From Alphaproteobacteria bacterium (GTDB taxonomy: Bacteria > Pseudomonadota > Alphaproteobacteria > Rickettsiales > UBA8987): a DNA stretch of 59,606 bases. The position numbers and the translations under genes were made by a program. Location of the stretch: positions 1 to 59,606 of the forward strand of contig JAUIEX010000004.1 in NCBI GenBank assembly GCA_030429725.1, in the 5' to 3' direction. The notes beneath the pieces were generated by a model, which saw only the letters and a program-made list of their open reading frames with translations, was not told the DNA's origin and searched no databases. Of this stretch, positions 3,956 through 54,306 are shown piece by piece; positions within the stretch are counted from its first letter, which is position 1; the number at the start of each line of letters is the position of its first letter.

Positions 3956-3987
3956 ATCCTAGCAACAAGAGTTTAATATTTTATTAA
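3956..3987 (-). promoter_or_regulatory. CtrA-type box plus -10
   Basis: TTAA-TAAAATA-TTAA, 11 nt, TAGGAT on the minus strand. Confidence 0.75.
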
Positions 3988-4000
3988 AACGCTGATAGGA

Positions 4001-4035
4001 CTTCCCTCTTCCCTCTTCCCTCTTCCCTCTTCCCT
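4001..4035. repeat. (CTTCCCT)5 heptamer tandem repeat
   Basis: Five perfect copies in the divergent intergenic region. Confidence 0.95.
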
Positions 4036-4058
4036 CATTTCTCTTTACTCTCCGGCCT

Positions 4059-4841
4059 ATGATCCGCCATCGCCATTTGCTCTATCAATCCCTTAAGCGG
4101 GAGATTCAGGCGCGCTATCGCGGTTCGGTGCTGGGCATTCTCTGGTCACTGGCAACACCGCTGCTGATGCTCACACTCTATACCTTCGTGTTTGCCATTG
4201 TGCTGAAGGCGCGCTGGGGCGTGGAATCGGTCGATAGCCACACGGGCGGGTTCGCCATTATGCTGTTTTCCGGGCTGATGCTGCATCAGTGCCTGTCGGA
4301 AATCCTCACCCGCAGCCCAACCCTCATCCTCAGCCACGCGCATTATGTCAAGAAGGTGGTCTATCCGCTGGAAATTCTCAGCCCGCAGATTGTGGGTGCG
4401 GCGTTCTTTCAGCTCTTCATCAGCCTGATTGTGTTGCTGGCCGGGCTGTGGGTAACGCAGGGTTCCATCCCGGTAACAACGCTCTGGCTGCCGGTGATCC
4501 TTCTGCCCTTCCTGCTGTTATGCCTTGGCCTAAGCTGGCTGCTGGCAGCGATGGGCACCTATCTGCGGGATACGGCACATCTCACCACCATGCTTTCGCC
4601 GGTGCTGCTATTCTTTAGCACCATTTTCTACCCGGCAGAGCGGCTTCCTGAGGCCATCCGCCCGCTTATCTACCTTAACCCCCTCACCCCGATGACGGAA
4701 CTCACCCGCGATATCCTTATCCTTGGCAACCCGCCATCCCTCCCCATGCTGACAATCTTTACCATCGCCAGCCTTGCCACCGGCATGCTGGGCTGGCTCT
4801 CCTTTAAAACCCTCAAAAATGGTTTTGCGGATATTTGTTAA
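4059..4841 (+). CDS. wzm: ABC-2 polysaccharide/O-antigen export permease (Wzm/RfbA-like)
   Basis: RYRGSVLGILW, KKVVYPLE and YLNPL motifs; multiple TM segments. Confidence 0.88.
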   Translation: MIRHRHLLYQSLKREIQARYRGSVLGILWSLATPLLMLTLYTFVFAIVLKARWGVESVDSHTGGFAIMLFSGLMLHQCLSEILTRSPTLILSHAHYVKKVVYPLEILSPQIVGAAFFQLFISLIVLLAGLWVTQGSIPVTTLWLPVILLPFLLLCLGLSWLLAAMGTYLRDTAHLTTMLSPVLLFFSTIFYPAERLPEAIRPLIYLNPLTPMTELTRDILILGNPPSLPMLTIFTIASLATGMLGWLSFKTLKNGFADIC

Positions 4842-5049
4842 CAACCTCTCAATAATCCGCTGCAGGCTGTGCTGTTTTCGCCACATCCCAGCGGGATGCC
4901 GACTACTGAGACTTTAAATAAAAAGAGTGGACGAAAAAGGGTTGCAATCTGTAAAGAAAGATGGTTGAACACTCTTCAGATATGTAGCAGGAGGTGTCAG
5001 TCTGCCTGCGCATAAGTTGATAACGATAACAACAATAAGGGGTTAGATA

Positions 5050-7608
5050 ATGACTGATTATATTTTTTCACAGGTAGTAGGGACGACAATTACTGCGTTC
5101 GATCCTGCTAACGATACACTTACTTTTGACGTGGTGAATAACACCGTCATCGCAGCCGATACATTGACGCTGACTGACAGTGGTTCCGATCTTGTCATCA
5201 CAACACCTCAGGGTTCCGTAACGCTGGGCGGCACGGAAAAGCTTGCTTTAACAACCACAAACCTGACTTTCATCGGTGGCACGACTTACACCATCGGCGA
5301 TGGCACAACGAACACTCAACTGGATGGTGCCGGTCAGGATTATACCGGCGGTAGTGCGCTGGGCGCTTTGGCAGATTATGCCGAAGGTCTGGGCGGTAAC
5401 GACTCCATCGATGGTGGTGCCGGTAACGATACGCTGAAAGGTCTGGGCGATAATGACTCTCTGGGTGGCGATGCTGGAAATGACTTCCTTAACGGTAATG
5501 CCGGTAACGACGTTGTAGACGGTGATGCCGGTAACGATACCGTTCGCGGTGGTGCCGGTAACGATACCGTTGACGGTGACGTTGCAGGTGGTGCTTTCAC
5601 TGACGATGGTGACGATCAGGTCTGGGGCGGTCAGGGCAATGACGTTCTGGCAACCGGTGGCGGTACGGACGAAGTTCGTGGCGGTGCCGGTAATGATACC
5701 GTTGTGCTTGCTTTCGCAGTGAATGAAGGTGCCGGTGCAGCTTCAGGCGCGAAAGACATTCAAACCGGTGAAGGCGACGACGTTGTTCTGCTGACGGACG
5801 GTGTGGCGGCGGATACCGCTTCCGTACTGCTGGGTGCAGGCGCTGATACGCTGGATGGTTCCGATGCAACCACAGCCTCTAACGCTCTGGTAACACAAGA
5901 AGGTGACGCGGATGATGATTACATCGGTGTGATCACGGCCAACGGTAATGCCGGTAACGACAGTCTGATTGGTGGTAACGGCGATGACGTTCTTCGCGGC
6001 GGTGCTGATAATGATGTTGTTAACGGTCACAGCGGTGCTGATACGCTTTCCGGTGACCTTGGTGACGATACGATCTTCCTGAGTGGTAATGGCGTTGCTG
6101 ATACGGCTGACTCCGTTGATGGTGGTGACGGTGATGATATCATCGCATTCCAAACGGCTGTTGACGGCGTTGGTGCAACGGCACAGGGTGACGACATCAT
6201 CAATGGTGGTGCGGGTAACGATACTATCTTCCTGACGGACGGTGATGCTGGTGATGATATCAGCGGTAGCGGTGGCGACGGTGACGACGTTATCGACGGT
6301 GGTGATGTTGAAACCACAACCAACACAGCTATTACCGGTGAAGGTGGCGCGGATGATATCTTCGCAGGTACCATGAACTTTAACGGTAATGCCGGTAACG
6401 ATACCGTTCGCGGTGGTGCTGGTGCGGATACACTGCGCGGCGGTGCGGATGATGATACCGTATCCGGTGGCGCAGGTGCTGACCGTCTGTTCGGTGATGC
6501 CGGTGACGATGATGTGACTGGTGCCGGTGGTGCCGACTCCATCGAAGGTGGTGCCGGTGACGACACGCTGAACGAAACCGGTGCGGGTGATAACGATACC
6601 GTGCTTGGTGGTGCCGGTAATGACAGCATCACGGCAGACGCTGCCGGTGTTGACAGCATCATCGGTGGTGAAGGTAACGATATCTTCGTACTGACCGGTG
6701 TGTTCGGTGATACGGACGTTCTGGACGGTGGTCTGGGTACGGATACGCTGGATTATGATGGCGTTGACGGTGCTCTGGGTACTGCCCTGACAACTGGCTT
6801 CGAGGTCATTGACCTTGGTGCGATCACCGGTGCGGGTACATTCACTGTGACCGACGATATGATCGTTACGGCTGAAAACCGCGCGATCACCATTCAAGGT
6901 GGTACAACCGACTTCGATCTGGATGTGTCTCAGGCTTCTGCACTGAACAGCACAACCGTAACACTAAGCACAACTGCTCGTGTCGACCTGCAAACCGACG
7001 CTTCTGCTGTAACAATTGCTGATGGTGTGAACGGTAGCGTTGTTGGTACGGCTGCTGCCGATACGATGATCGGCGGTACCGGTACGGACACCTTTGTTGG
7101 TGGCGACGGTGCTGACAGTCTGGTTGGTAATGCTGGCGCAGACACACTGACAGGTGGTCTGGGTGCGGATACCCTCTCAGGTGGTACGGGCGCTGATACG
7201 TTTGACTATCAAACTGTTGACACATCAACTGCTGCAACGATGGATAGCATTACCGACTTTGCTGCCGGTAGCGATATCATCGACTTTGATACGGCTGGCA
7301 ACGATACCGGTGATGACACCGCCATTGTTGCTGCGCTGGCGGATCAGTTTACTGCCGGTGGTTTCGCAACGGGTAACCTGGCAACATTGATTGCTGCGGA
7401 AGCTACTTTGGCTCTGGCGATTGCAGAGTTCCTGGCAGCAACCGGTTGGGATGACGATGATGTGGGTGCCTTCGAATATGGTGGCAATACCTACGTTGTT
7501 CACGCTGATGCGGATAACGCAGCAGGTAATATCGTTGAGCTGGCAGGCGTGACCGGTCTAACGACCATCACCGAAGTTGGTACAACTGACTCCTTCACCA
7601 TCGCATAA
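5050..7608 (+). CDS. RTX (hemolysin-type Ca-binding repeat) protein, possible S-layer protein
   Basis: Dozens of GGxGxDxL nonapeptides; acidic, Gly/Asp/Thr/Ala-rich; no signal peptide; strong GGT/AAC codon bias. Confidence 0.9.
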   Translation: MTDYIFSQVVGTTITAFDPANDTLTFDVVNNTVIAADTLTLTDSGSDLVITTPQGSVTLGGTEKLALTTTNLTFIGGTTYTIGDGTTNTQLDGAGQDYTGGSALGALADYAEGLGGNDSIDGGAGNDTLKGLGDNDSLGGDAGNDFLNGNAGNDVVDGDAGNDTVRGGAGNDTVDGDVAGGAFTDDGDDQVWGGQGNDVLATGGGTDEVRGGAGNDTVVLAFAVNEGAGAASGAKDIQTGEGDDVVLLTDGVAADTASVLLGAGADTLDGSDATTASNALVTQEGDADDDYIGVITANGNAGNDSLIGGNGDDVLRGGADNDVVNGHSGADTLSGDLGDDTIFLSGNGVADTADSVDGGDGDDIIAFQTAVDGVGATAQGDDIINGGAGNDTIFLTDGDAGDDISGSGGDGDDVIDGGDVETTTNTAITGEGGADDIFAGTMNFNGNAGNDTVRGGAGADTLRGGADDDTVSGGAGADRLFGDAGDDDVTGAGGADSIEGGAGDDTLNETGAGDNDTVLGGAGNDSITADAAGVDSIIGGEGNDIFVLTGVFGDTDVLDGGLGTDTLDYDGVDGALGTALTTGFEVIDLGAITGAGTFTVTDDMIVTAENRAITIQGGTTDFDLDVSQASALNSTTVTLSTTARVDLQTDASAVTIADGVNGSVVGTAAADTMIGGTGTDTFVGGDGADSLVGNAGADTLTGGLGADTLSGGTGADTFDYQTVDTSTAATMDSITDFAAGSDIIDFDTAGNDTGDDTAIVAALADQFTAGGFATGNLATLIAAEATLALAIAEFLAATGWDDDDVGAFEYGGNTYVVHADADNAAGNIVELAGVTGLTTITEVGTTDSFTIA

Positions 7609-7632
7609 TTGCGGTAGTGCACTAACCCCTTG

Positions 7633-7660
7633 GAAAGGCCGGGCTTTGCCCGGCCTTTCT
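7633..7660 (+). terminator. Intrinsic terminator after the RTX gene
   Basis: GAAAGGCCGGGC-TTT-GCCCGGCCTTTC. Confidence 0.85.
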
Positions 7661-7756
7661 GCGTTTTAGGCCACGTTTTTTGCCAATATTCACCGCAGAA
7701 AACCCGCCGGAATCTTTGCCCTTCCTTATTTCAGTTCATAGACATAGAATTCCTCT

Positions 7757-9166: not shown

Positions 9167-9253
9167 TGCAAAACGTTCAATAGGCGGCTTTCTTTCTCTG
9201 ATAATAGCTGTTAGAAAAAGTACGAAACCGGGAATAGGAGGCATTACACCACC

Positions 9254-11699: not shown

Positions 11700-11703
11700 T
11701 TCA

Positions 11704-11777
11704 GATGATTGATAATGGATGATAGATTGGTGAAATTCCAATTACTCAATCATCCATCATCTATTATCCATAATCAA
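11704..11777. repeat. Degenerate heptamer repeats in inverted arrangement between pstA and pstB
   Basis: GATGATT GATAATG GATGATA... facing ...ATCATCC ATCATCT ATTATCC ATAATCA. Confidence 0.65.
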
Positions 11778-11790
11778 ATCAGGACAAGAT

Positions 11791-12579
11791 ATGACAAAGA
11801 AAGATAAGACTAAAAAAACACCAAAAACCCGGATGGAAGCACAGAATCTGAGCGTGCTTTATGGCGGCAAGCCGGCGCTGCATGGGGTGGATTTAACCAT
11901 TCCCAACCACCGCGTGACCGCATTGATCGGGCCTTCCGGCTGTGGGAAATCCACTTTTCTGCGCTGCCTGAACCGCATGAATGATCTGGTGGAAGGCTGT
12001 GAAGTGCAGGGGAAGGTATTGCTGGATAACAATAATATCTATTCCAGCCATGTTGATCCCGTTCTCCTCCGTGAAAAGGTGGGAATGGTGTTCCAGAAGC
12101 CGAACCCATTCCCGAAATCCATTTATGATAATGTGGCCTATGGCCCCCGCCTGCATGGCATGGCCGATAGCCGTGATGCGCTGGACGAAATCGTGCAGAA
12201 ATCCCTTAAGCGGGCGGGCATCTGGAAAGAGGTAAAAGACCGGCTGCATGAGCCCGGCACGGCACTTTCCGGCGGGCAGCAGCAGCGTCTCTGCATTGCC
12301 CGCACCATTGCGGTGAACCCGGAAGTGGTGCTGATGGACGAGCCATGCAGCGCACTTGATCCGATTGCCACGGGCATTATTGAGGAACTGATTGCAGAGC
12401 TGAAAAAGAAATACACGATTGTGATCGTTACCCATTCCATGCAGCAGGCACGGCGGGTTTCGGATTATACCGCCTTTTTCCATCTGGGAAATATTGTGGA
12501 GAAAGGAGAGACGGCCAAAATCTTTGAATCACCGAAGAAGAAGCAGACCAAAGAATATATCAGCGGTAAATATGGCTGA
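11791..12579 (+). CDS. pstB: Phosphate ABC transporter ATPase
   Basis: [26 protein letters not shown] and DEPCSALDP. Confidence 0.97.
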
Positions 12580-13285
12580 TCCTGTGGTGCATATTCTGGT
12601 GGTGGAGGATGAGGAAGCCATCCTGCGCCTGATTCAGTATAATCTGGATGCGGCGGGCTATGCCGTGCGCACACAAATGGACGGCGCGGCCGCGCTGGAC
12701 GATATTGAAGACAATCCGCCGGATCTTCTGGTGCTGGACTGGATGCTGCCGGAGGTGGATGGCATTGAAATCTGTGAATATATTCGGGAATCGGAAACAC
12801 ACCGCCATATTCCCATCATCATGCTGACGGCGCGCGGGGAGGAGGAAGACCGCTTGCGCGGACTGGATGCCGGGGCGGATGATTATATGGTTAAGCCTTT
12901 CTCGCCCAAAGAGCTGGTGGCACGCATTGGCGCGGTGCTGCGGCGCGTGCGCCCAAGCCTTGCCAGACAGGTGATTGAAGCCGGGAAGCTGCATGCGGAT
13001 ACGGAGCGCGGAAAGCTTTCCTTAAAGCAGGGCGAAAAACGTGTGGCTGTGAAATGCGGCCCAACGGAATTCCGCCTTGCCTGCCAGCTGATGGAGCATG
13101 CCGGACATGTGCAAAGCCGCAGCCAGCTGCTGGATGCGGTGTGGCAGGATAAGGAATTAGGCTATGATTCCCGCACGGTGGATGTGCATATCCGGCGCCT
13201 GCGTAAGGCGCTGGATGATGCGGCGGCGCATGCCGGTGATCTGATTGAAACGGTGCGTGGCCTTGGCTATCGGCTGGAGCCTTAG
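12572..13285 (+). CDS. phoB: Phosphate regulon response regulator
   Basis: Receiver domain LDWMLP, GADDY.KPFS and winged helix [15 protein letters not shown] 12572 overlaps the pstB end. Confidence 0.93.
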
Positions 13286-13460
13286 ACGCTGTTATTAAAT
13301 TAGGAAATATTTTGCCATGGTTCTCCCAATTGCAGCTTAAATCGTCGCTCGCTTCGTTAAGGCACTTGCCCGCAGAACCACTACGCGCTGCGTTCTTTTC
13401 CTTGCGAATCAACGATTTAAGCCAGCAACAAAATGTCTCCTAATTTAATAACAGTGGCTA
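13283..13460. mobile_element. MITE-like element (family F), 178 nt, TA-flanked
   Basis: Terminal inverted repeats TAGACGCTGTTATTAAATTAGGAAATATTTTG / CAAAATGTCTCCTAATTTAATAACAGTGGCTA; homologous to 32069-32160. Confidence 0.88.
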
Positions 13461-14036
13461 GCGGGACATGGCGGCACTGGCCTTCTGCGGTGGCGCGTTA
13501 TTATCCAGCCCCCTGAACCGCCCAACATTTTCCACATCCAGGCTTGTGTGATAAACAGCAAAAAGAGCATCCGCCAGTAATCCGGATTCCGGCACGCCAA
13601 GTTCCGGATCAAGCTCAAACCGCTCGTCATCGTGGTAGCGCTTCAGCTGCAGCCCCAGATAATGATCTTTCATTTCCGAGACCAGTTCGGGAGTTAACTC
13701 CCCTTTTTTACTTTGCAGCAGCACATCGTATAATTTTTCGGCAAATTGATCGCTGGCCGCTTTCAGCCCTTCCAGATATTCGATCTGAGCCTCAAGATTT
13801 TCCGGCATGTCTTCCTTCAGCCAGTCTATTTCATCATCAATGGCCTTGCTGAACCGAACGAGCTTGGCATGTGCTTTGGCCAGATGTCTCCGCTCCGCAT
13901 GGGCAATGTCCTGCCGATTGAGCGTCTTGGCAAACAACTCACTGGAAATCATTTTCAGCCCGTCATTCCAGAGTTTTTCCGGCGCCATGAGGTTTTGCAT
14001 CAATTCCGCGGCCAGTTTTTTATCTTCTTCCTGCAT
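13458..14036 (-). CDS. Hypothetical helical protein, orphan
   Basis: 192-aa ORF with GGAGG RBS; ends ...DNNAPPQKASAAMSR. Confidence 0.75.
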   Translation of the reverse strand: MQEEDKKLAAELMQNLMAPEKLWNDGLKMISSELFAKTLNRQDIAHAERRHLAKAHAKLVRFSKAIDDEIDWLKEDMPENLEAQIEYLEGLKAASDQFAEKLYDVLLQSKKGELTPELVSEMKDHYLGLQLKRYHDDERFELDPELGVPESGLLADALFAVYHTSLDVENVGRFRGLDNNAPPQKASAAMSR

Positions 14037-14058: not shown

Positions 14059-14090
14059 AGTTTACGACAGAAAAGTTAATAAAGAATTCT
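14059..14090 (-). promoter_or_regulatory. CtrA-type half site plus -10
   Basis: AGAA-N7-TTAA, 11 nt, TAAACT on the minus strand. Confidence 0.55.
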
Positions 14091-20391: not shown

Positions 20392-21246
20392 CTATGCTGG
20401 CTCAGTTACCTCATCTTTCTGTGGTTCGGCCACCTCAACTTTGGCGCCATCTGCCTTGGCCGCCGCCACCGGATCCACCTTCGGCTGCGGTGCATTTTCA
20501 TCCACACGCTGAATCGGCATAGACGTTGGTTTTTTCTTCAGCTGCACCATGGAGCTGAATTTGCCCACGGCCGCCTTTGGCTGATCCTTCGGCAGGGTTC
20601 CGGGTGCGGATTTCATTTCCACCACCGGTTTTTTCTTAGCCCCATCATAGGTGTTTTCTTCCACCTCAATGATAAACCCGCCTTTGTCGGCAACTTTAAT
20701 ATGCAGCACATATTTTTGCACCGGGTTGCCTTCATGCTGGCGGCTATAAACCATGATATACATCTTGTTCGTACATGGAATGGAAATGGCCGGGAATTCC
20801 TCATGCAGCCGCTGGAACAAGGCGCGTGCTTCCTCCACACTGGCAAAGACTGTCTTTTTCTTCACCATGCGCAATAACGGATGGCCGAAATTCGGATGGC
20901 GCTGCTTCGGGCGACGCTTCTGTGGATGTTTGTTCACTTCCACCTCTTCCCTTATGGCATAAAGCATCCATTTGCCACGCGGCGTCTGGCGGCATTTCAC
21001 CAGGGCAAAATTTCCTAAGCCCCCCTTCTCCTCCTGACCGGGTGTCACCGCATAGCCTTTAATCCACAGGCGCACGGATGGATCGCTCTGATCCTCTTCC
21101 TGATCTTTGGAAACAATAAAATATTCCTTAATGGTTTCCAGCCGTTCAATGGCCTGTTCTTTGCTGGCCAGCCGGAAAAACTCGTTGACGATAGCTTCGA
21201 TCGTCGGATTGTTGACGGTTGCGACCGCCTTGGTTTCTGTGCTCAT
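20392..21246 (-). CDS. Hypothetical protein with an apparent internal duplication
   Basis: 284-aa ORF with GGAGG RBS; two similar halves (KEQAIERLETIKEYF / VEEARALFQRLHEEF). Confidence 0.8.
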   Translation of the reverse strand: MSTETKAVATVNNPTIEAIVNEFFRLASKEQAIERLETIKEYFIVSKDQEEDQSDPSVRLWIKGYAVTPGQEEKGGLGNFALVKCRQTPRGKWMLYAIREEVEVNKHPQKRRPKQRHPNFGHPLLRMVKKKTVFASVEEARALFQRLHEEFPAISIPCTNKMYIMVYSRQHEGNPVQKYVLHIKVADKGGFIIEVEENTYDGAKKKPVVEMKSAPGTLPKDQPKAAVGKFSSMVQLKKKPTSMPIQRVDENAPQPKVDPVAAAKADGAKVEVAEPQKDEVTEPA

Positions 21247-21299: not shown

Positions 21300-21331
21300 A
21301 TTATGCACCATGAAGGTTAAGGAAGGGTTAA
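21300..21331 (-). promoter_or_regulatory. CtrA box plus -10
   Basis: TTAA-CCCTTCC-TTAAC; 11 nt after TTAA, CATAAT. Confidence 0.8.
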
Positions 21332-30253: not shown

Positions 30254-30285
30254 TTAACGCCCTATTAACGGTCTTACGTTACCCT
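30254..30285 (+). promoter_or_regulatory. CtrA box plus -10
   Basis: TTAA-CGCCCTA-TTAAC; 11 nt after TTAA, TACCCT. Confidence 0.8.
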
Positions 30286-30317: not shown

Positions 30318-30599
30318 ATGGCATCGGTAAAAGATATGATTGATAACATCCCCGAACCAGCGGAAGGGGATAGCAGGGTGGAAGATCTGATGCAGGATCC
30401 GGAATATCTTCGTATGTCTTCACAGGTAATTCAGGAAGCGCTGAAAAAGGGCTTTGATGTGTTGCAGCTGGAAAATGGCGATATTGTTACCACCGGCACT
30501 AAGGTCATCGTCACCCAATATCACTGGGATGAGAAGAAAAATGACATGGTCAAACTTACCAACGCACAGCGCAAAGTGCTGGAAAAGAAAAAGAAATAA
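30318..30599 (+). CDS. Small conserved protein, DUF2671-like
   Basis: ALKKGFDVLQLENGDIV...QYHWD resembles the Rickettsiales DUF2671 family (from recall, not searched); GAGG RBS. Confidence 0.65.
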   Translation: MASVKDMIDNIPEPAEGDSRVEDLMQDPEYLRMSSQVIQEALKKGFDVLQLENGDIVTTGTKVIVTQYHWDEKKNDMVKLTNAQRKVLEKKKK

Positions 30600-34524: not shown

Positions 34525-35724
34525 CTATCCAATTCCCTGGCCAGTTGTTTTTGCCTGCTGTTGCTGTTGCGCGTCAATCTGCGCAGATGAAAGCCCCTCC
34601 AGAGACGCCGCCGAAAAATAGCTGGCAGCATCAATTGCGGCATACGGCATATTATCTGCCTCATTCTCCTGCGTTTCCCGCGTGGCGGCATCCGTTGCTT
34701 TTGCTGTGGTTGTTTGCATCATTTGGGCGATGTCACTCTCCAGCGCCGGCAATTGTGCCTGCACAAACTTCGCCGTATCAGTGGCATAGCCCACCTCGCG
34801 GCGCGTTCCATCCGCCATCACGGAAAAAACCTTATCATTCTGCTCCGGGTCAATCACCAGATATTGCGGCAGAACTGAAGGCACCACCATTCCCGCAGCG
34901 CTGGCCGCCTCACGATAAGCCGCCAATTTTCCGTTTAGAGCCACTACATTGGTAACGGTCTGTTCATAATATTGTTCATTGGTCATGCCACCGGTAACGG
35001 AGGCGATTTTCTGTTCCGCTTCTGCGCCGGTTCCCAGCCCAATCACCGCATCCCCGGCCAGTCCGGCCGCTTCCACGCGGGATGTTTCCTTTTCGGAATC
35101 GAAATTCTTATAAGTGTCCCAATTTTGGTACACGCTGTAAGCTGCCAAACCAATCGTGGCAACCCAACCAATCACCGGGATGGCACGAAAACCAACCTTG
35201 CCGCCTACCTTGGCCGCAACTTTGGCCGCAACTTTGGCGGCTTTGGCCTCTTGTGCCGCAACTTTGGCCGCAACTTTGGCCGCAGCTTTGGCCTCTTGTG
35301 CTGCAAGCCTGGCTACATCATCTGCCAAATTCCCTGCCGCTTTCAGGGATTGATCCAGCGCTTTTTTGGCAACGGGGTTGTTCAATATGTTGACGGCTTT
35401 GGCCAATTCTGTTGTTTTTTGTGTACCAACCACCACGCTCTGAAGCGCTTTCTGCACTTCCGCCACCCGCGCGGCAACAGCCGCTTGCGAGGCATTGGTT
35501 GCCAGCCCAAGTGTTTTATAGGCGTTATTCAGTAAATTTCCATCAATCAGGCTCATGGCGGCTCTCATTTCCGCCGCCTGTGCGGCGCTGACCGCACCGG
35601 CAATTTTCAGCTGCGTAGCATGGTGAGCAACCTTTTCCGCCATCTGGGCATACGTCGCACCCGGCGCTATATCCAGCGTTTTAAATGCTGCTGCCATTTT
35701 TTTTGCGATCTCTACTTCACTCAT
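34525..35724 (-). CDS. Hypothetical 399-aa protein with two J-domain-like starts, AAKV repeats and a TM segment
   Basis: AFKTLDIAPGATYAQM and AYKTLGLATNASQAAV; AIPVIGWVATIGLAAY hydrophobic segment. Confidence 0.8.
   Translation of the reverse strand: MSEVEIAKKMAAAFKTLDIAPGATYAQMAEKVAHHATQLKIAGAVSAAQAAEMRAAMSLIDGNLLNNAYKTLGLATNASQAAVAARVAEVQKALQSVVVGTQKTTELAKAVNILNNPVAKKALDQSLKAAGNLADDVARLAAQEAKAAAKVAAKVAAQEAKAAKVAAKVAAKVGGKVGFRAIPVIGWVATIGLAAYSVYQNWDTYKNFDSEKETSRVEAAGLAGDAVIGLGTGAEAEQKIASVTGGMTNEQYYEQTVTNVVALNGKLAAYREAASAAGMVVPSVLPQYLVIDPEQNDKVFSVMADGTRREVGYATDTAKFVQAQLPALESDIAQMMQTTTAKATDAATRETQENEADNMPYAAIDAASYFSAASLEGLSSAQIDAQQQQQAKTTGQGIG
35210..35305. repeat. Coding tandem repeat (12-nt TTGGCCGCAACT units) giving AAKV/AAQEAK repeats
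   Basis: Directly visible in the sequence. Confidence 0.85.
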
Positions 35725-35733: not shown

Positions 35734-35765
35734 ATTCTAACAGGTAAAGATTAACAACTGGTTAA
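35734..35765 (-). promoter_or_regulatory. CtrA box plus -10
   Basis: TTAA-CCAGTTG-TTAA, 11 nt, TAGAAT, 9 nt, ATG. Confidence 0.8.
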
Positions 35766-40493: not shown

Positions 40494-41309
40494 ATGTTAA
40501 CGGCGGACGATATTGATTACCTCAAGGCGCTGGCGCAGGAAGCCGGCGCGGAAATTCTGCGCCATTATCAGGGCGCGGCGCAGGTTGAAATCAAAGAGGA
40601 TGACAGCCCGGTGACGGCCGCCGATCTGGCCGCAAATGCCATTATCATGCGCGGTTTGCGTGCGCGCTGGCCGAAAACTTACATCGTTTCCGAGGAAGGT
40701 GCGCCCAATGACGGCCTGATGCCGCCGGACGTGGCGGGAAGCTTCTGGCTGGTGGACCCGCTGGATGGCACGAAAAGTTACATTAAGCGCACCGGTGAAT
40801 TTACGGTGAATATTGCGCTGATTCAGGCCGGGCAGCCGGTTTTCGGCGTGGTGTTCGTGCCGGTGCAGAACCTGCTTTACTGGACGGATGCGCAGGGTGC
40901 GGCGTGGCGGAAAAATGCCTCCGACGCGGCGGAAAAAATCACCGTGCGCCGGCCGCCGGCAGCGGGGCTTACCGTGGTGGCCAGCAAGTCTCACCGCTCA
41001 AAAGAGACGGATGAGATGATTGCGCATCTGAAGGAAGCCACCGGCTTTGCGGTGGCGGAATTTCGCGCGGCCAGCAGCTCGCTCAAATTCTGCCTGCTGG
41101 CCGAAGGCGCGGCGGATCTTTACCCGCGCTTAGGCCCCACGATGGAGTGGGACACGGGCGCAGCGCATGCTATTTTGCGAGCAGCCGGGGGTAAACTTCG
41201 CCGGCCGGACGGCACGGCTTTCACCTATGGCAACCGGCAGCAGGCGCGGCCTTACCTTAACCCCTTCTTCATCGCCTGGGGTGATTTTGAACTGGGTTTG
41301 GAGGGTTAG
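40494..41309 (+). CDS. cysQ: 3'(2'),5'-bisphosphate nucleotidase
   Basis: SPVTAAD, WLVDPLDGTK, SSLKFC and MEWDTGA. Confidence 0.94.
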   Translation: MLTADDIDYLKALAQEAGAEILRHYQGAAQVEIKEDDSPVTAADLAANAIIMRGLRARWPKTYIVSEEGAPNDGLMPPDVAGSFWLVDPLDGTKSYIKRTGEFTVNIALIQAGQPVFGVVFVPVQNLLYWTDAQGAAWRKNASDAAEKITVRRPPAAGLTVVASKSHRSKETDEMIAHLKEATGFAVAEFRAASSSLKFCLLAEGAADLYPRLGPTMEWDTGAAHAILRAAGGKLRRPDGTAFTYGNRQQARPYLNPFFIAWGDFELGLEG

Positions 41310-42544
41310 CTTAATTGCGCAGCCGGAGCGGGTGGCAGAAGTCTGTCCGCCCGGGTGATGGCGCCGCCGCCTCCGGCGGGTTCGTTTGCCGAAACATTCG
41401 TACTCTTTTGCTCAGCACGGAATTTTTCCACCAGACGGTTGAACTGCTTGGTAACGGATGCTTCCATTGTAAAATGCTTCTTGAATCCCCAATCATTTTC
41501 TGAGCGGGAAACATCCAATTTCTTGGCCCATTCCTTGGTAAAACTCGTCTTTTTAGTGTCCAAGTGGTAATAGTCATCAATACTAAAGGTTTTAGCTTTA
41601 TCACCCATTAAAGGAGTCAAAACTTTCATGATATCCATCATTGATGCATTATATTCCGACAAATTATAATTAGATGCTAGATCACTAATTTTATTAGCGG
41701 GGGTATGTAAGAATCGAATAGTCTCAAGCCCAACGCTATCACCATCAATCATCGGAAAAGATGCCATTGCCGGTATCTTTGATTCAAATACCCCATCATT
41801 TGAATATCCAAGTTTTGTGCCCTCTTTTCCACCTTTCACATAATATTCAGCGACTGCGACGATCAGCCGATCCAGCTCCTCTGTGGTGCCATCACTGGGT
41901 GGCACATGGCAGGTCAAAACCCCACCATAACGCAGGCAGGTTGCCAAAAATTTATCCGCAGTCTGATTAATACTCCTAAATGAAGCTTCCACCGCAGCTT
42001 TAGCAATACCGTAAAACCCTTTTGGCTTGGTTGGTGCATAAATACCTGCCTCGTCCAATTGCGTATCCTGACCAATCACCGCCATGGAACTTGGCATGAA
42101 GAAACGCCGAACTCCAAGTTCTTTGGAGATTTCAGCCATTTTAATGGGAGCTTTTTCATTGATTTCCCTTCCAAGCTCCGGAAATTTCTCCGCCGCGCCG
42201 GAAAGGAGGGCCGCCAGGTTGATGACCACTTTGGCGTTATTGTCATTAATGCCGTTACTCACCATTGTTTCATCGGTGATGTCCAGCATCTCGATGCCTT
42301 GTTCTTTGAGCGCCGCCACGCGCGCTTCGCGGCCTGGCGCGCCTTTGGGCACCCAATCCGTCAGCTTCACCTGATCGCCATACATCTGCTTCAACATCGG
42401 CACCAGATATTGCGCCACCTGCCCGTTGGCACCGGTCACTAAAATAGTTTCCGGCTTTTCCTCACCCGGCTTTACAGGTGCAACCAAGTCGCCATATTGC
42501 TGTTGGATTTCTTTAAGTTTTGTCTGTGTATCAATCGCGTTCAT
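41306..42544 (-). CDS. NAD-dependent epimerase/L-threonine dehydrogenase-like SDR with extra N- and C-terminal extensions
   Basis: TGANGQV, LAALLSG..E, PSSMAV, YGIAK and GTT motifs. Confidence 0.8.
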   Translation of the reverse strand: MNAIDTQTKLKEIQQQYGDLVAPVKPGEEKPETILVTGANGQVAQYLVPMLKQMYGDQVKLTDWVPKGAPGREARVAALKEQGIEMLDITDETMVSNGINDNNAKVVINLAALLSGAAEKFPELGREINEKAPIKMAEISKELGVRRFFMPSSMAVIGQDTQLDEAGIYAPTKPKGFYGIAKAAVEASFRSINQTADKFLATCLRYGGVLTCHVPPSDGTTEELDRLIVAVAEYYVKGGKEGTKLGYSNDGVFESKIPAMASFPMIDGDSVGLETIRFLHTPANKISDLASNYNLSEYNASMMDIMKVLTPLMGDKAKTFSIDDYYHLDTKKTSFTKEWAKKLDVSRSENDWGFKKHFTMEASVTKQFNRLVEKFRAEQKSTNVSANEPAGGGGAITRADRLLPPAPAAQLS

Positions 42545-42550
42545 CCACAC

Positions 42551-42582
42551 AGGTTAGCAGCAAAAGGTTAATGAAAGCTTTG
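42551..42582 (-). promoter_or_regulatory. CtrA-type half site plus -10, leaderless-like
   Basis: CAAA-N7-TTAAC; 11 nt after TTAA, TAACCT, 6 nt, ATG. Confidence 0.55.
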
Positions 42583-44940: not shown

Positions 44941-44954
44941 AAAAGGAGAAAACG

Positions 44955-45839: not shown

Positions 45840-45932
45840 ACCTCAACCGTAAGAAGCAGGGGTTGATCTTGCATCACTCCTGCTTATCTCACTTAAACAA
45901 TTGATAGATTAAAATAAAGACAGGAGAAACCC

Positions 45933-46835: not shown

Positions 46836-46881
46836 AACCTCTCTTTTATCGGGCTGCGGGTCGGTCAGATAAGGCACTAAG

Positions 46882-46916
46882 AAAACCCGCCAACTTCACT
46901 GTTGGTGGGTTTTTTT
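46882..46916 (+). terminator. Intrinsic terminator after tsf
   Basis: AAAACCCGCCAAC...GTTGGTGGGTTTTTT. Confidence 0.8.
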
Positions 46917-47820: not shown

Positions 47821-47876
47821 GGGGGGTTTAACTGTCTTTTGGATAGCTTTTTAACCACAACAATCCGCCTTCAAAC

Positions 47877-48497
47877 TCAGCCATCCAGACCGTCACCCGC
47901 CAGATAGTTGACCAGACGGAAGCGAATATCCTGCGCCATCTCTTTTAAGATGCGGTTATTCGTATCCTGCTCGGCGGCGTAGGTGGCAAAATCGGAAGTG
48001 TCCGCCGCATCAAAACTGCCGATGATCTGGCTGCGGTCGCGCCACACCACCTCCCCATTGCTGATATCCACCAGCGCAAGGCTTGCATCAACCGTCAGGC
48101 TGAAACGCGTCACTTCCCGATCCTGCTGAATATTCAGCTCCTGCCGCTGGCGGGAAAGATCAATCCGCAATTCATGCGTTTTCGCTTCACCCTGTTTGAT
48201 CAGCAGATTTTCCAGCTCCGTCTTCAGCAACTGCCCGTCCCGCCCGGCGGGAATATTGGCCACACGCACTTTGGCCAACGCCGCCTGCACCGGCACGCTG
48301 ATGGCAGATTGCTCACTGTAAAGCGGGGTAAAGCCGCAGGAAGTGAGCAAGATACACAAGAACAGCGCCATAAAGAGAGGATATAGCTCCCCCCCATCGC
48401 ATCGGCGTGCTTCGCATGCGCCTCTGCGACTCCCCCACAGGTGGGGAGTTGAGCTAAACTCTGAACTCTGAACTCTGAACTCCGGACTCTGTCTCAT
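47877..48497 (-). CDS. lptE: LPS assembly lipoprotein LptE with a repeat insertion in the signal-peptide n-region
   Basis: Lipobox [13 protein letters not shown] overlaps the leuS TGA (ATGA); conserved leuS-lptE order. Confidence 0.85.
48385..48490. repeat. Family A right half + GAGCTAAA + (CTGAACT)n heptamers inside the lptE 5' end
   Basis: Same composite as 49576-49681. Confidence 0.88.
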
Positions 48498-51400
48498 GCT
48501 GCCACCACGTTAATAATTTTTCCCGGCACCACAATCACCTTGCGCACCTGTTTACCTTCAATGAACTTTAACACATTCTCATGAGAAAGTGCCTGTTTTT
48601 CTGCCTCTTCCTTATCCGTGCCCACCGCCATTTCCAGCGTGCCGCGCATTTTGCCGTTCACCTGCAGCGCCACCGTGACCGTCTCCTCCACCAGCAAATC
48701 AGGCAGGGCTTGCGGCCATGGCTGCCGGCAGAGCATTTCCGTGTGCCCCAATTGCTGCCAGCATTCCTCGGTGAGGTGCGGAATCATCGGGTGCAGGAGG
48801 GTGATGGCCACTTCTACGCCTTCGCGGAAAACGGCCTTGGAAGCACGCTGCTCCCGTGGCATTTTTTCCAGCGCATTGGTCAGCTCCCGCACCTTGGCCA
48901 CGGCTTTGTTATAACCGAAACGGTGCAGTTCCTGCGTCACATCGCGGATGGTGCGGTGAATCAGCTGATGCATTTCCAGCAAGCCACCGGCCAACCCCTG
49001 CAGCCAGTGTTTGCCATCCATCATGCCCAGCGGCTCCACCTCTTCCACCAACTTCCACAGCCGATCGAGATATTTGCGCGTGCCGGCCACGCCGGCATCG
49101 CTCCATTCCAGATCGCGCTCCGGCGGGGAGTCGGAGAGCATGAATAAACGCGCTGTATCGGCGCCGAAACGACCCATAATATCCTTCGGATTGACCGTGT
49201 TCAGCTTGGATTTTGACATTTTGATGGATGGGCCAGCTTTCACCGGTGCGCCCGCTTTTGTTTGGTAGCTGCCATCTCTCTGGCGGATGACCTCTTCCGG
49301 ATAAAGCCACTGGCCTGCCTCATTCTGATACGTCTCATGGCACACCATGCCCTGCGTCAACAGGGCTTTGAAAGGTTCTTTCACGTCCGTATAGCCGCAA
49401 CGGTTCAGCGCGCGGGTAAAGAACCGCGCATACAGCAGATGCAGCACCGCATGCTCAATCCCGCCAATATACTGATCCACTGGCATATAGGGTGAGGAGT
49501 AGCTCCCCCCTTGAGGGGGAGCGGACGAAGCCTCTTTTGAGGCTGAGTCGTGGGGGGGCGTTCCATCCCGCGATTGCCCCCCCACCGCATCATCTCCTAG
49601 CGCTTCGCGCTGAGGAGATTCTGCGACTCCCCCTCCAGGGGGGAGTTGAGCTAAATCCTGAACTCTGAACTCTGAACTCTGCCCCGCAAATGCCAGAAAA
49701 TACCAGCTGGATTCAAAGAACGTATCAAATGTGTCCGTCTCACGCGTGGCTTGTTTGCCGCATTGCGGGCAATCCACATCTTTCCATGTGGGATGCAGCA
49801 ATAGCGGGTTGCCCGTTTGCGTGCCGTCAATCACCACATCTTTGGGAAGGGTGACGGGCAATTGATCCTTCGGCACGGGCACTGCGCCACAATCCGCGCA
49901 GTGGATCACCGGAATCGGACAGCCCCAGTAACGCTGGCGGGAAATGCCCCAGTCCCGCAAACGGTAATTGGTTTGCCGTTTCCCGACACCAAGCGCCTCA
50001 AGCTTTTCAATGGCTGCTTGTTTCGCTTCCGAAACATTCATGCCATTCATAAAATCGGAGTTCACCAACACCCCATCCCCGGTGTAGGGCTCCTTTAACT
50101 GCTCCCGAGAAAGCCTACTGGCTTTCTCATGGAGCGCTGCTTCCGCAGGCTCAGGGCTGGGCTCGCCTGCTGGCTCGCTAACCTCTTCTCTTTTCTCTTC
50201 ACTCTTCACTCTTCGCTCTTCCGGCGCCACCACCTGTGTAATCGGCAGGCCATATTTGCTGGCGAAGGCAAAGTCGCGCTCATCATGCGCCGGGCAGGCA
50301 AAAATTGCGCCCGTGCCATAGCCCATCAGCACAAAATTGGCCACATAAACCGGCAGGGTGATGTTTGCATCCAGCGGATGCCGCACCCGCAAGCCTGTAT
50401 CAAAACCCTTCTTTTCAGCCTTATCAATCGCTTCCGTGGCGGTGCCCAGCGCAGCGCATTCAGCAATAAAATCCTGCAACTCTTTATTATCCTGCGCTAA
50501 TGCTTCCGCAAGCGGGTGCCCGGCGGCAATGCCAATGAAGGACGCCCCGAACAATGTTTCCGGCCGCGTGGTATAGACTTCGATATGATTATCCCCGTGA
50601 TGTTCTTCCTGAACATCACATGGGATGGCGCTTGCGCGCGCTGACGGCTCGGTCGGCCTACTGGCCTCCTTGGTATGATTATCTACGGGAAATTCTCCTG
50701 AATTTCCCATGAGACGATCCTTCGGATGCTCATGGCTGTGCTCGCCTACTGGCTTGCCTGCACCCTCACCTGAAAATGCTTCAGCATTTTCAGACTCTCC
50801 CATCAAGGGAGAGTGCTTATTACTCCCCACCTGTGGGGGAGTCGAGGAGTGGTCAGCGTTAGCGCCACGACTCGGTGGGGGGGAGCAAGCTGAACTCTCT
50901 ATCTGGAATCGCACCAAGGCACCTTCGGATTTGCCGATCCAGTTTTCCTGCATATGGCGCACACGCTCCGGCCATTCTTCCAGCTCACTTAAGCCCTGCA
51001 ACAGCGCTTCGGAAAAATCGGAAATACGCAAAAACCATTGCTGCAGCTTGCGCCGCTCCACAGGCGCGCCGCTGCGCCAGCCTTTACCGTCAATCACCTG
51101 TTCATTGGCCAGCACGGTCTGATCCACCGGATCCCAGTTCACTTCCGCCTCTTTGCGATAGGCCAGATCATTCGCCCAGAAATCCAGAAACATGGCCTGT
51201 TCCTGTGCATAATAATCCGGCAGGCAGGTGGCCAGCTCGCGCCGCCAGTCATAGGACAGGCCGATGGCTTTCAGTTCACCGCGCATTTCCGCGATATTGC
51301 CCAGCGTCCAGTCTTCCGGATGCAGGGGGTTATCCTGATTTTCCGGACGGGAATTATGGGCGATGGTGGCATTTTCCGCCGGCAGACCGAAGGCATCCCA

Positions 51401-51628
51401 GCCAATCGGGTGCAGCACATCAAAGCCCTGCATGCGTTTATGCCGCGCCACCACATCCCCCAGCGTATAATTCCGCACATGCCCCATATGGATTTTGCCG
51501 GAGGGATACGGGAACATTTCCAGCACATAATAAGGATTTTGTGGGTTATCCGGCGCGTGATGCACGCCGGCATCTTCCCATGCACGCTGCCATTTCGCTT
51601 CAATTATTTTGGGGTTATAATCACTCAT
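48494..51628 (-). CDS. leuS: Leucine--tRNA ligase with three in-frame repeat insertions
   Basis: [53 protein letters not shown] and KMSKS; 1044 aa from ATG 51628. Confidence 0.96.
49501..49681. repeat. Family A complete copy (49501-49647) plus heptamer tail in leuS
   Basis: Termini identical to 463-597; lies antisense relative to how that copy lies in ileS. Confidence 0.93.
50101..50221 (+). repeat. Family B element (50101-50178) plus TTC(A/T)CTC heptamers in the leuS CP1 domain
   Basis: GAGAAAGCC-TACT-GGCTTTCTC and CTGC-TTCC-GCAG hairpins; encodes [41 protein letters not shown]. Confidence 0.9.
50584..50886. repeat. Stack of four elements in leuS: B (50594-50669), B (50686-50757), A left half (50762-50815), A right half (50821-50886)
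   Basis: Each part aligns by eye to copies in ileS; 10-nt direct repeat TATGATTATC at 50584 and 50674. Confidence 0.9.
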
Positions 51629-51689
51629 AACGCTGTCTATACCCCTGCAACAGGGTTCTGACAACGGCTTGTCTTATGAAATGCGGCGC

Positions 51690-52016
51690 TTAAGCCAGCC
51701 CTTCCTGTGCGGCGCGTTGCTGCAGCGCCGCTTGCATGGCGTTTAACTCCGCCAGCGCGGCGGCTTTTTCCGCCCCCTCCGCCAGCGCTTCCAGCATTTT
51801 CGCCTGATTGGCAATGCTCACCAGCCCAAGATTATCGGCCGCGCCCTTCAGCTCATGCGCACCGGCCCGAAACGCCGCACTGCCCACAGGCTCCTGCCGC
51901 AGGGTGGTGATGGTGCGGTTCATCGTCTTCATCAGCAGCATAATCAACTCTCGCCCAAGTTCATTATCCCCATCGGTAATGCTGTGGAAACGGTTCATGT
52001 CATAACGATCCGGCAT
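51690..52016 (-). CDS. Hpt domain protein
   Basis: AHELKGAADNLG phosphotransfer motif. Confidence 0.88.
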   Translation of the reverse strand: MPDRYDMNRFHSITDGDNELGRELIMLLMKTMNRTITTLRQEPVGSAAFRAGAHELKGAADNLGLVSIANQAKMLEALAEGAEKAAALAELNAMQAALQQRAAQEGLA

Positions 52017-52095
52017 AGCTGGAAGCTACCGAAAACAGGGGGAAATGTCACTGATTTTTTCAATCAGCAGTTACCGGTCAGGCCATTTTGAAAGA

Positions 52096-53058
52096 TCAGA
52101 GCCGAATCAGCGCACTGCCCCAGGCCAGCCCGCCGCCAATGGCCTGCATGGAAAGCACATCCCCTGCCTTAAACCGCCCTTGTTGCATGGCATCATCCAG
52201 CGCTAAAGGAATGGAGGCGGCCGATGTATTGGCATGTTTTGCCACGGTGCTCACCACCTTATCTGCCGGAATTTCCAGCTTTTTTGCCAGCGCATCCAGA
52301 ATCCGCTGATTGGCCTGATGCGGGATAAACCCCGCCACATCCGCCACATTCAACCCATTAGCCTCTAACGATTCTAGCGTACATTCCGCCAATTTTGCCA
52401 CGGCATGTTTAAACACATCCCGCCCCTCCATATGAATAAACCCGGTTTTCTGATTGCTGCCCGCGCCACCATCCACATAGAGCAAATCCCGCGTTGCACC
52501 CGCGCCGTGCAGATGGGTGGATAAGATACCGCGCACGGGCGCACCTGTTGCCGGTTCCGCCTGAAGCACCACCGCACCGGCGCCGTCACCAAATAAAATA
52601 CAGGTATTACGATCCTGCCAGTCCACAATCCGCGAAAGCGCATCCGCACCAATCACCAAAGCCGTGCGATGTGCGCCCGTTTTCAGCAAAGCGTCCACAA
52701 CGCTCAACGCGTAGACAAACCCGCTACACACGGCCTGAATATCAAAAAATGCGCCGGCCGCACCAATCTCGGCCTGCACCTTGCCTGCCGTGGCGGGAAA
52801 TGTGTTATCCGGCGTTGTTGTGGCCACCACCACCAAATCCACCGCGCGGCCGTCAATCCCCGCTGCCTGCAGCGCCTTTTGCGCGGCGGCAATCGCCATA
52901 TCACCCGTGGTTTGGCCTGCGGCAACAATATGTCTTTGGCCAATACCCGTCCGCGCGATAATCCATTCATCACTCGTATCCACCGTCTCAGAAAGTTCCG
53001 CATTCGAAACAACCCTCTCCGGCAGGTAACTTCCCGTGCCAAGCAAACGGCTATTCAT
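52096..53058 (-). CDS. fabH: Beta-ketoacyl-ACP synthase III
   Basis: AVCSGF, LFGDGAGA, PHQANQRI and NTSAASIP. Confidence 0.96.
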   Translation of the reverse strand: MNSRLLGTGSYLPERVVSNAELSETVDTSDEWIIARTGIGQRHIVAAGQTTGDMAIAAAQKALQAAGIDGRAVDLVVVATTTPDNTFPATAGKVQAEIGAAGAFFDIQAVCSGFVYALSVVDALLKTGAHRTALVIGADALSRIVDWQDRNTCILFGDGAGAVVLQAEPATGAPVRGILSTHLHGAGATRDLLYVDGGAGSNQKTGFIHMEGRDVFKHAVAKLAECTLESLEANGLNVADVAGFIPHQANQRILDALAKKLEIPADKVVSTVAKHANTSAASIPLALDDAMQQGRFKAGDVLSMQAIGGGLAWGSALIRL

Positions 53059-54139
53059 CCTGATCCAGCCCCTTGGGAAGCAGCTCCGTTTCCCCTAGCG
53101 CGTCTTCCAGATCAAACCCGGGGTAAGAGGTGGCCGCCAGTTCTTCAATAATCTTGCGGTTAATATCAAACTGCGCAAGGCGCACCGCTTTCTCAATGGC
53201 GCAGGCATGGCCATACGCATCGGAACCGCCATGGCTTTTCACCACAATGCCATTCAGGCCGATAAACATCGCCCCGTTATATTCGCGTGGGTCAATGCGC
53301 CGCTTCACATTCTCCAGCCCTTGTTTGGCAATGAGTGCGCCCATACGCACCCAGATCGGCGCCGTCTTCAGCCCTTCCTTCAGGAATCCGGCAAACATGC
53401 CGGCCGTGCCTTCAATGGTTTTCAGGGCAATATTCCCCGTAAACCCATCCGTCACAATCACGTCCACAATACCGCGTGTAATATCATTGCCTTCGATAAA
53501 GCCATGGAAATTGATCGGGCAATCTTCTTCCTGCAACATGGCGGCCGCATTCTGCACCGCTTCGGGGCCTTTGATGTCTTCACTGCCCACATTCAGCAGC
53601 CCAATGGTTGGGTTTTCCCGCCCCAGCAAGGCACGGGCAAAGGCATCCCCCATCGCGGCAAATTCAAATAAATTACTGGCATCGCAGTGTATATTTGCCC
53701 CAAGATCCAACATGATATTATCATGTTTCAGGCTGGGCATCACCCCGGCAATGGCCGGCCGGTCGATCCCCGGCAAGGTTTGCAGCACCAGCTTGGAAAT
53801 GGCCATCATCGCCCCGGTATTCCCGGCGGAAACAATGCCCGCCGCCTGCCCTTCTTTCACGGCGCGAATCGCCAGACGCATGGAGCTTTTCCGCCCACGG
53901 CGCAACGCGATGGAAGGTTTTTCATCATCGGCAATCATTTCATCAGTATGAATAATCGTGGTTTTTGGCTTCAGCGCCGGATAGATTTCCAGCAGCGGGT
54001 GAATCACCGCCTCATCCCCCACCATCAGAAAGGTCACCACACGGTAATCCTTCATTATCAGGTTTGCACCTTCAATGATGGCTGCCGCGCCATGGTCCCC
54101 GCCCATCACATCCAGCGCCACGGTAACAGGCACATTCAT
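53051..54139 (-). CDS. plsX: Phosphate acyltransferase
   Basis: ALDVMGGDHG, SAGNTGA, DGFTGNIALK and KSHG. Confidence 0.95.
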   Translation of the reverse strand: MNVPVTVALDVMGGDHGAAAIIEGANLIMKDYRVVTFLMVGDEAVIHPLLEIYPALKPKTTIIHTDEMIADDEKPSIALRRGRKSSMRLAIRAVKEGQAAGIVSAGNTGAMMAISKLVLQTLPGIDRPAIAGVMPSLKHDNIMLDLGANIHCDASNLFEFAAMGDAFARALLGRENPTIGLLNVGSEDIKGPEAVQNAAAMLQEEDCPINFHGFIEGNDITRGIVDVIVTDGFTGNIALKTIEGTAGMFAGFLKEGLKTAPIWVRMGALIAKQGLENVKRRIDPREYNGAMFIGLNGIVVKSHGGSDAYGHACAIEKAVRLAQFDINRKIIEELAATSYPGFDLEDALGETELLPKGLDQDE

Positions 54140-54274
54140 TCTTGAATCTTTACGTCGTAACGGCATACCTTCTTGGCAATACAGGAATCCGCCAAAAGTG
54201 CAAGCTGTCGCAACCCATTTCACCTGTTTTTCTTCAAAAATGATGGATTCACCATCTTTGTTCCATCCTGGCTA

Positions 54275-54306
54275 TTAAAGCTTTGTTAGGTTTTGCCTGT
54301 TATGAT
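54275..54306 (+). promoter_or_regulatory. CtrA-type box plus -10, leaderless-like
   Basis: TTAA-AGCTTTG-TTAG, 11 nt, TATGAT, 6 nt, ATG 54313. Confidence 0.65.

Follow-up and report, generated by a model that had tools for sequence, protein, structure and literature searches.

A 59,606-nt stretch of alphaproteobacterial DNA (Rickettsiales, UBA8987; NCBI GenBank assembly GCA_030429725.1, contig JAUIEX010000004.1, positions 1 to 59,606) was analyzed in full and is called the window below. Seven genes dispersed along it, mostly orphans, are preceded by one promoter architecture, in which a CtrA-type box (TTAA-N7-TTAA) is followed, after exactly 11 nt, by a -10-like hexamer. The surrounding genome (G000; 1.74 Mb, 74 contigs; GC content, 0.51), of which the window is contig C65, is 98% complete with 1% contamination.

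The original prediction, made from the letters of the window, had placed this box upstream of seven open reading frames (ORFs), four times in perfect form, once ending in TTAG and twice as a half site, each time 11 nt ahead of a named hexamer. Read letter for letter on the strand of each gene, all seven were present, the division into perfect, variant and half sites was exact, and spacer and hexamer agreed at 7 of 7 sites (Table 1). An ATG lying 6 to 9 nt past the hexamer, predicted for three of the genes, was found for the ORFs starting at 35724 (9 nt), 42544 (6 nt) and 54313 (6 nt). By chance, 0.52 perfect TTAA-N7-TTAA boxes would be expected in 59.6 kb; the window has four, a number that none of its 100 shuffles reached.

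A weight matrix of 34 columns was trained on the perfect sites of the whole genome and read at a threshold of at least 20 bits. It found exactly seven sites in the window (scores in Table 1), the next best scoring 8.5 bits; no further gene of any kind was marked, in keeping with the remark that the motif had not been noticed before housekeeping genes. Three of the seven had been in the training set, which makes their scores partly circular, and the other four, including both half sites, lay outside it. Seven of the 52 sites in the genome thus fall within the window, which makes up 3.4% of it (1.8 expected; Poisson p 0.002).

Box, spacer and hexamer in the genome and its relatives

Genes were called with our own ORF-based procedure (1,438 genes over 86.6% of the genome), and 235 kb of intergenic DNA were scanned for the box. 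TTAA-N7-TTAA occurred there 54 times, against 4 to 18 times for each of 20 other spacings between 0 and 20 nt, an enrichment of about five-fold; coding DNA held nine copies, with no excess. With both directions read, TANNNT stood at offset 11 after 28 of the 54 boxes and 0 to 4 times at most other offsets; the peak at offset 30 (8 cases) probably belongs to a second promoter class, described below.

The fixed spacing proposed from the window held throughout the genome. The perfect composite of N7 box, N11 spacer and hexamer was found 28 times in intergenic DNA, against 0 to 5 times at 12 other spacer pairs, and 47 times (8 to 38 at control spacings) when one mismatch was allowed; with two mismatches there was no clear excess (215 against 142 to 211). 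Half boxes that kept the proximal TTAA alone and had N11 and TANNNT after it numbered 79, compared with 41 to 62 at other spacings except k = 8, where the count of 94 arises, by reasoning and not by separate computation, from the full boxes themselves. The weight matrix gave 52 sites of at least 20 bits, against 0 to 6 when the spacer was changed by 1 or 2 nt.

Alignment of the perfect sites gave the consensus TTAAC(C/G)wtTtgTTAA, a T-rich spacer that closes with G-y, and TAnA(C/A)T-G, with C after the first TTAA (position 5) in 19 of 29 sites. Nothing resembling TTGACA stood at the -35 position of these sites. The flanks outside the 34 columns were unconserved, and the promoter is therefore no repeat element. 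The first ATG of a long ORF lay 5 to 9 nt past the hexamer in 18 of the 52 sites (at 6 nt in 10 of them), at 10 to 15 nt in none and at 16 to 53 nt in the rest. This peak speaks independently for the hexamer as a true -10; the two-peaked distances indicate leaderless mRNAs together with short leaders, if transcription starts 6 to 8 nt past the hexamer.

The box begins 26 nt ahead of the -10 hexamer. With the starts predicted from leaderless-like ATGs 6 to 7 nt past the hexamer, its first T would lie at about -38 or -39 and the box would span about -38 to -24, which agrees with the proposal that a CtrA-type box overlaps the -35 region, here without a -35 hexamer. Two TTAA elements one helical turn apart, neither of them at a workable -35 distance, would favor a dimeric activator over an alternative sigma factor. 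A scan for classical promoters (TTGNNN-N16/17-TANNNT) gave a weak intergenic excess (170 and 155, against 126 to 152 at most spacings and 181 at k = 22) and no clean housekeeping promoter model for comparison.

The same architecture was sought in 40 related genomes of 1.1 to 2.5 Mb, 17 from the same family and 23 from other families of the order, which are not independent samples. In most of them, N11 composites far outnumbered reversed controls as well as N12 forms (N11, reversed and N12 counts of 52/1/5 in G001, 110/7/31 in G009 and 121/13/30 in G005); a few were without N11 excess. G026, from another family of the order, had 54 composite sites, of which 50 were fetched and 34 had a complete downstream ORF. 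The ATG lay 6 to 9 nt past the hexamer in 15 of these 34 targets and never at 10 to 19 nt. Another genome from a different family of the order, G035, preferred N12 (48, against 9 at N11), a lineage-specific one-base shift of the promoter geometry.

Two further observations concern these promoters. A second shared promoter class occurred at seven loci of G000 (Table 1) and consisted of a TTAA-N7-TTAA box (present in 6 of 7), then 5 to 7 nt, CTTGCA, a (GA)n run and TTTGATAgAAT; from its letters it resembles a sigma-70 -35/-10 pair that has the box farther upstream. Conservation is confined to the promoter, the sequence downstream differs, and none of the seven loci had an Rfam match. Many composite promoters also lay within a few hundred bases of contig ends (G026 C4:73, C71:117 and C103:269; G000 C4:156, C5:151 and C40:37), which suggests that assemblies break in variable regions carrying these genes.

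Target genes and type IV secretion

The 52 sites gave 50 assessable targets, one being a contig-end duplicate and another having its target cut by a contig end. Genes were called orphans when no Pfam family matched at E up to 1e-4. The prediction that the targets are mostly orphans extended to the whole genome: 37 of 50 targets had no Pfam family, against 13 of 130 genes in a sampled background (genes of at least 80 aa from 20 random 20-kb regions, 130 of 148 drawn being scanned; not the whole proteome; Fisher p ~1e-16). For the first 24 genes behind perfect sites the figure was 21 of 24. The bias recurred in G026 (24 of 34 targets against 10 of 50 neighboring genes, the latter scored at a stricter E of 1e-6; Fisher p 5e-6), where targets were again less hydrophobic and more acidic.

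Compared with other genes, the 49 targets of G000 with complete ORFs were less hydrophobic (p 6e-12), more acidic and richer in S/T/N/Q, and their GC content at third codon positions (GC3) was slightly lower (median, 0.50 against 0.56). The 57 proteins encoded behind perfect or one-mismatch sites showed no paralogy to one another. The 13 family-bearing targets were VirB3, two exoproteins with a two-partner-secretion (TPS) domain, two J-domain proteins, ClpS, an HD protein, a sugar transferase, PEPcase-like, PfkB-like and decarboxylase-like proteins, and the epimerase-family and DUF2671 proteins of the window. A prophage origin of the orphans was considered and is unsupported, 36 of 37 being without a phage (PHROG) family.

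The target virB3 is the first gene of a virB3-virB4-virB6 operon. In the rvh systems of Rickettsiales, type IV secretion genes are scattered in islands, with virB3-virB4 followed by several virB6 genes, a duplicated virB4, and virB8-virB9 and virB11-virD4 elsewhere. This genome has such a Rickettsiales-type (rvh-like) layout: VirB3, VirB4 and a VirB6/TrbL protein, then two ORFs of virB6-like size, on C8; a second VirB4 on C31; VirB8 and VirB9 on C27; and VirD4 with a secretion ATPase (PF00437 match, presumed VirB11) on C71. Directly after virD4 lies a 1,208-aa orphan with its own box and no match in the 40 relatives. The genome also carries flagellar and chemotaxis genes, a gene transfer agent (GTA), and ankyrin and Sel1 proteins; an ATP/ADP translocase was not found in it.

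All 41 genomes sampled from the order had VirB3. Of 30 virB3 loci, 13 had a perfect box no more than 250 nt upstream of the gene, compared with 4 of 30 loci of the DUF2671 gene (p 0.02), whose homologs occur in 35 of 41 genomes. Judged from these sequences, the promoter mechanism is conserved while most of its targets are not.

Among the targets in the window, the 399-aa protein (target 5) had no homolog in the 40 related genomes or, at near lengths, in a collection of 5.8 billion proteins. The 515-aa protein (target 7) had one relative among 1.84 billion representative proteins and no Pfam match at E up to 1; a weak lipase-like lead with an AHSLG motif (ESM Atlas score 0.92, recognition below the usual level) was obtained, and its single-sequence AlphaFold2 model had a mean pLDDT of 37.5. 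Target 6 had only weak matches (30 to 38% identity) in 3 of the 40 relatives and is therefore an accessory gene.

Other features were noted near these genes. One-mismatch promoter C55:47637(-) of G000 (25.4 bits) lies in the GTA cluster, between the tail-tube gene and a DUF2460 gene; its target is a 223-aa "orphan" (C55:46929-47600), which presumably occupies the place where a GTA tape-measure-like gene is expected. Four of the 34 targets in G026 (Table 1) end in a shared tail, LGTVNKP(V/Q)(FL), compared with 2 of 171 other genes. The motif does not occur in G000 and may serve as a lineage-specific tag for sorting or secretion at the C-terminus. Repeats of 7 nt in tandem (units CTTCCCT or CTCTTAT) stand directly beside several CtrA-type boxes and in other intergenic places (window 4003-4037; G000 C7:23391, C31:14647, C73:19375, C53:12658 and C67:533). 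The window also encodes an 852-aa RTX-repeat protein with a serralysin-type C-terminal region (5050-7608, + strand), which adjoins an ABC-2 transporter gene (4059-4841) and is without a CtrA-type promoter.

Table 1. Positions of the window promoters and their targets, of the second-class promoters, and of G026 targets with the shared C-terminal tail
Feature	Location	Strand	Description	Matrix score (bits)
Promoter 1	Window 3956..3987	-	Full box TTAATAAAATATTAA (3973-3987), N11, -10 TAGGAT (3956-3961)	26.0
Target 1	Window 2941..3924	-	Orphan; first ATG 3924, 31 nt past -10; no Pfam, NCBIfam or PHROG family; coding score positive	
Promoter 2	Window 14059..14090	-	Half box AGAA-N7-TTAA, N11, -10 TAAACT (14059-14064); outside training set	20.6
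Target 2	Window 13458..14036	-	192-aa orphan; ATG 22 nt past -10, GGAGG ahead of ATG	
Promoter 3	Window 21300..21331	-	Full box TTAACCCTTCCTTAA (21317-21331), N11, -10 CATAAT (21300-21305); outside training set	27.3
Target 3	Window 20392..21246	-	284-aa orphan; ATG 53 nt past -10	
Promoter 4	Window 30254..30285	+	Full box TTAACGCCCTATTAA (30254-30268), N11, -10 TACCCT (30280-30285)	24.3
Target 4	Window 30318..30599	+	93-aa DUF2671 protein	
Promoter 5	Window 35734..35765	-	Full box TTAACCAGTTGTTAA (35751-35765), N11, -10 TAGAAT (35734-35739); best window site	36.0
Target 5	Window 34525..35724	-	399-aa orphan, leaderless-like; ATG 9 nt past -10	
Promoter 6	Window 42551..42582	-	Half box CAAA-N7-TTAA, N11, -10 TAACCT (42551-42556); outside training set	20.1
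Target 6	Window 41306..42544	-	412-aa NAD-dependent epimerase/dehydratase-family protein, leaderless-like; ATG 6 nt past -10	
Promoter 7	Window 54275..54306	+	Box TTAAAGCTTTGTTAG (54275-54289, ends TTAG), N11, -10 TATGAT (54301-54306); outside training set	23.2
Target 7	Window 54313..55860	+	515-aa orphan, leaderless-like; ATG 6 nt past -10	
Second-class promoters	G000 C2:23093, C38:73940, C49:1037, C50:2314, C55:39558, C71:37013, C74:44887		Seven loci	
GTVNKP-tail target	G026 L168:108-569	-		
GTVNKP-tail target	G026 L170:3075-3752	+		
GTVNKP-tail target	G026 L176:156-1265	-		
GTVNKP-tail target	G026 L191:84-848	-		

CtrA as the candidate regulator

The presence of ctrA in the genome, which the original prediction had put down for checking, was confirmed on contig C38 (NF045991 CtrA equivalog, 381.1 bits against a cut-off of 350). 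Only one other OmpR-type regulator is encoded, a PhoB-like protein in the window (12494-13285) beside pst genes. ChpT (PF10090) scored 76.9 bits, over its cut-off, and PAS-HisKA kinases are present, no search having been aimed at CckA; GcrA was not found in the genome. The region upstream of ctrA holds four TTAA half sites within about 90 nt, including one full box. A search for loci related to this CtrA gave Sphingomonadales CtrA proteins at 59 to 64% identity together with unrelated regulators, and no close relative.

We consider it likely that the ~50 sites are activator-dependent, sigma-70-type promoters forming one regulon, a genuine CtrA-type class II regulon. CtrA, phosphorylated through CckA-ChpT, would bind as a dimer to the two half sites at about -38 to -24, substitute for the missing -35 element and recruit polymerase to the TAnA(C/A)T hexamer exactly 11 nt downstream, and transcription would start 6 to 8 nt past that hexamer. 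About a third of the targets would then have leaderless mRNAs, and the rest leaders of 10 to 50 nt. Switched on jointly would be the virB3-virB4-virB6 operon, the TPS exoproteins, the J-domain proteins and ~37 hydrophilic, acidic, lineage-specific proteins; one known switch, CtrA, probably turns on this lineage-specific set. Binding and activation by CtrA, the start sites, and cell-cycle or life-stage timing are what the sequences lead us to infer.

It is unlikely that the box is read by a protein other than CtrA, be it the PhoB-like regulator of the window or a member of another family, in answer to phosphate or another signal. The core of the box is palindromic, and sequence alone cannot say which dimer binds it; PhoB, as the sole other OmpR-type regulator, is a candidate. 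The phoR-pst-phoB operon, however, has no such box upstream, whereas ctrA has its four half sites. The motif, including its TTAAC preference (19 of 29), and its position match the CtrA full-motif promoters described in the accessible part of a Caulobacter study, in which the 5' base of the full motif lies near -35 to -39 at activated promoters and at -39 at ctrA P2 (Zhou et al. 2015, PMC4287350). Rickettsia CtrA complements Caulobacter, which suggests a conserved site (PMC2877005, accessible part).

Still less likely is that CtrA binds and represses, the orphans being silent while CtrA is active and expressed when it is degraded. A box at -38 to -24 does overlap the polymerase region, and some Caulobacter promoters are repressed by CtrA through occlusion. 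Repressing sites there lie over the -10 or at about -14, whereas activating full motifs lie near -35 to -39 (PMC4287350). Promoters with no -35-like hexamer at the required place should, moreover, be weak without an activator, and rigid 11-nt phasing to the -10 fits a face-of-helix contact with polymerase, not simple occlusion.

That the pattern arose from the AT-richness of recently acquired DNA, or from a mobile repeat carrying the promoter, without any shared regulator is very improbable: the somewhat lower GC3 of the targets would suit this reading, but it is already contradicted by the spacing controls, with enrichment confined to one spacing pair (28 against 0 to 5) and to intergenic DNA, and the flanks are unrelated, the targets are not paralogs and most of the 40 related genomes are enriched in the same architecture.

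Several points weigh against the proposed CtrA regulon. The TTAA box alone does not name CtrA; the second type IV cluster (virB8-virB9) has no matrix match of at least 16 bits; and of 30 related DUF2671 loci only 3 have retained a matching promoter, gene-by-gene conservation being poor. Gene starts are home-made, from our own calls and no standard gene caller, and the absence of a Pfam family is only a proxy for an orphan, direct homolog searches having covered four targets. A C-terminal GR/RG tail, noticed in retrospect on 14 of 49 targets and 54 of 1,371 other genes, is a lineage-specific curiosity; its reading as a signal for secretion was rejected, as the pattern was not repeated in G026 (0 of 34 targets, 12 of 171 other genes).

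Known regulons and the meaning of the signature

The mechanism of a CtrA class II promoter is known, and the orphan and secretion-related content of this regulon is unusual. Class II promoters such as Caulobacter ctrA P2 likewise have TTAA-N7-TTAA, with its 5' base near -35 to -39, in place of a -35 element, together with an autoregulated ctrA and an OmpR-type regulator, which CckA-ChpT feeds in Caulobacter and would feed here (PMC4287350, accessible part). Unlike in Caulobacter, nearly every site here keeps a spacer of exactly 11 nt, and one target in three is predicted to be leaderless; 74% of the regulon consists of genes with no Pfam family, a type IV secretion operon is included, and no flagellar, division or methylase gene stood among the annotated targets, in a search that was not exhaustive.

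Cheng and colleagues are said to have described, in 2011, the CtrA regulon of Ehrlichia chaffeensis. Wolbachia has 34 to 55 ORFs with upstream CtrA consensus sites (PMC4426382), and site counts for Wolbachia genomes are also given in bioRxiv 2024.04.08.588587. These bacteria, which keep CckA/CtrA, are likewise small-genome alphaproteobacteria with sites before several dozen genes. In the Wolbachia work, sites were counted if they were perfect 8-mers or 9-mers no more than 450 bp from a start, and the accessible part of it mentions no fixed -10 spacing, orphan bias or secretion-operon target (PMC4426382). CtrA-dependent type IV secretion in an alphaproteobacterium has a precedent in Dinoroseobacter shibae, whose CtrA phosphorelay controls type IV secretion, a gene transfer agent and flagella; unlike here, that system is wired through quorum sensing, and orphans are not reported, in the accessible part of the source, as the bulk of the regulon (PMC6473078). 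A literature search of titles and abstract beginnings in a limited library found no CtrA regulon made up mainly of orphan genes and no CtrA box at a Rickettsiales-like virB3.

The PmrA consensus is reportedly, after Zusman and colleagues in 2007, a tandem TTAA-containing repeat upstream of the -10. PmrA activates ~40 effector genes of Legionella pneumophila and of Coxiella burnetii, and its element has been used to predict effectors (PMC6989116, PMC2701608; accessible parts). The likeness lies in one winged-helix response regulator controlling dozens of dispersed, fast-evolving genes, mostly of unknown function, together with type IV secretion parts (PMC6989116, PMC2701608). Unlike in PmrA systems, the regulator here is a CtrA equivalog, the secretion system is of VirB/VirD4 and not Dot/Icm type, and translocation of the targets is putative. 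PmrA orthology of the regulator was rejected, the PmrA model scoring 185 bits against a cut-off of 330, whereas the CtrA model passes.

Because of their co-regulation with virB3-virB4-virB6, the orphan that adjoins virD4, the composition of the proteins and their likeness to the PmrA effector genes of Legionella, the orphans may be injected or secreted effectors, a reading that we hold tentatively and think somewhat doubtful. Comparably speculative, if marginally less so, is an order-wide reading in which CtrA would be the master switch of a host- or prey-interaction arsenal, driving the secretion machine along with species-specific, rapidly replaced effectors, each of which would have acquired the rigid, often leaderless promoter independently.

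The substrates of Rickettsiales-like type IV systems are difficult to identify, since they lack conserved domains and come from bacteria that are uncultured or intracellular. A promoter signature (box, N11 and -10) marking ~50 genes per genome, three quarters of them without a known family and a secretion operon among them, could list candidate effectors cheaply. If the order-wide reading is true, the signature alone would suffice to pick out effector candidates in any of the group's genomes, in the way that PmrA boxes served in Legionella and Coxiella. The signature would also tie expression of the marked genes to the CtrA cell-cycle or life-stage switch. A conserved regulator can, on this evidence, keep its mechanism while nearly all of its targets turn over between genera.

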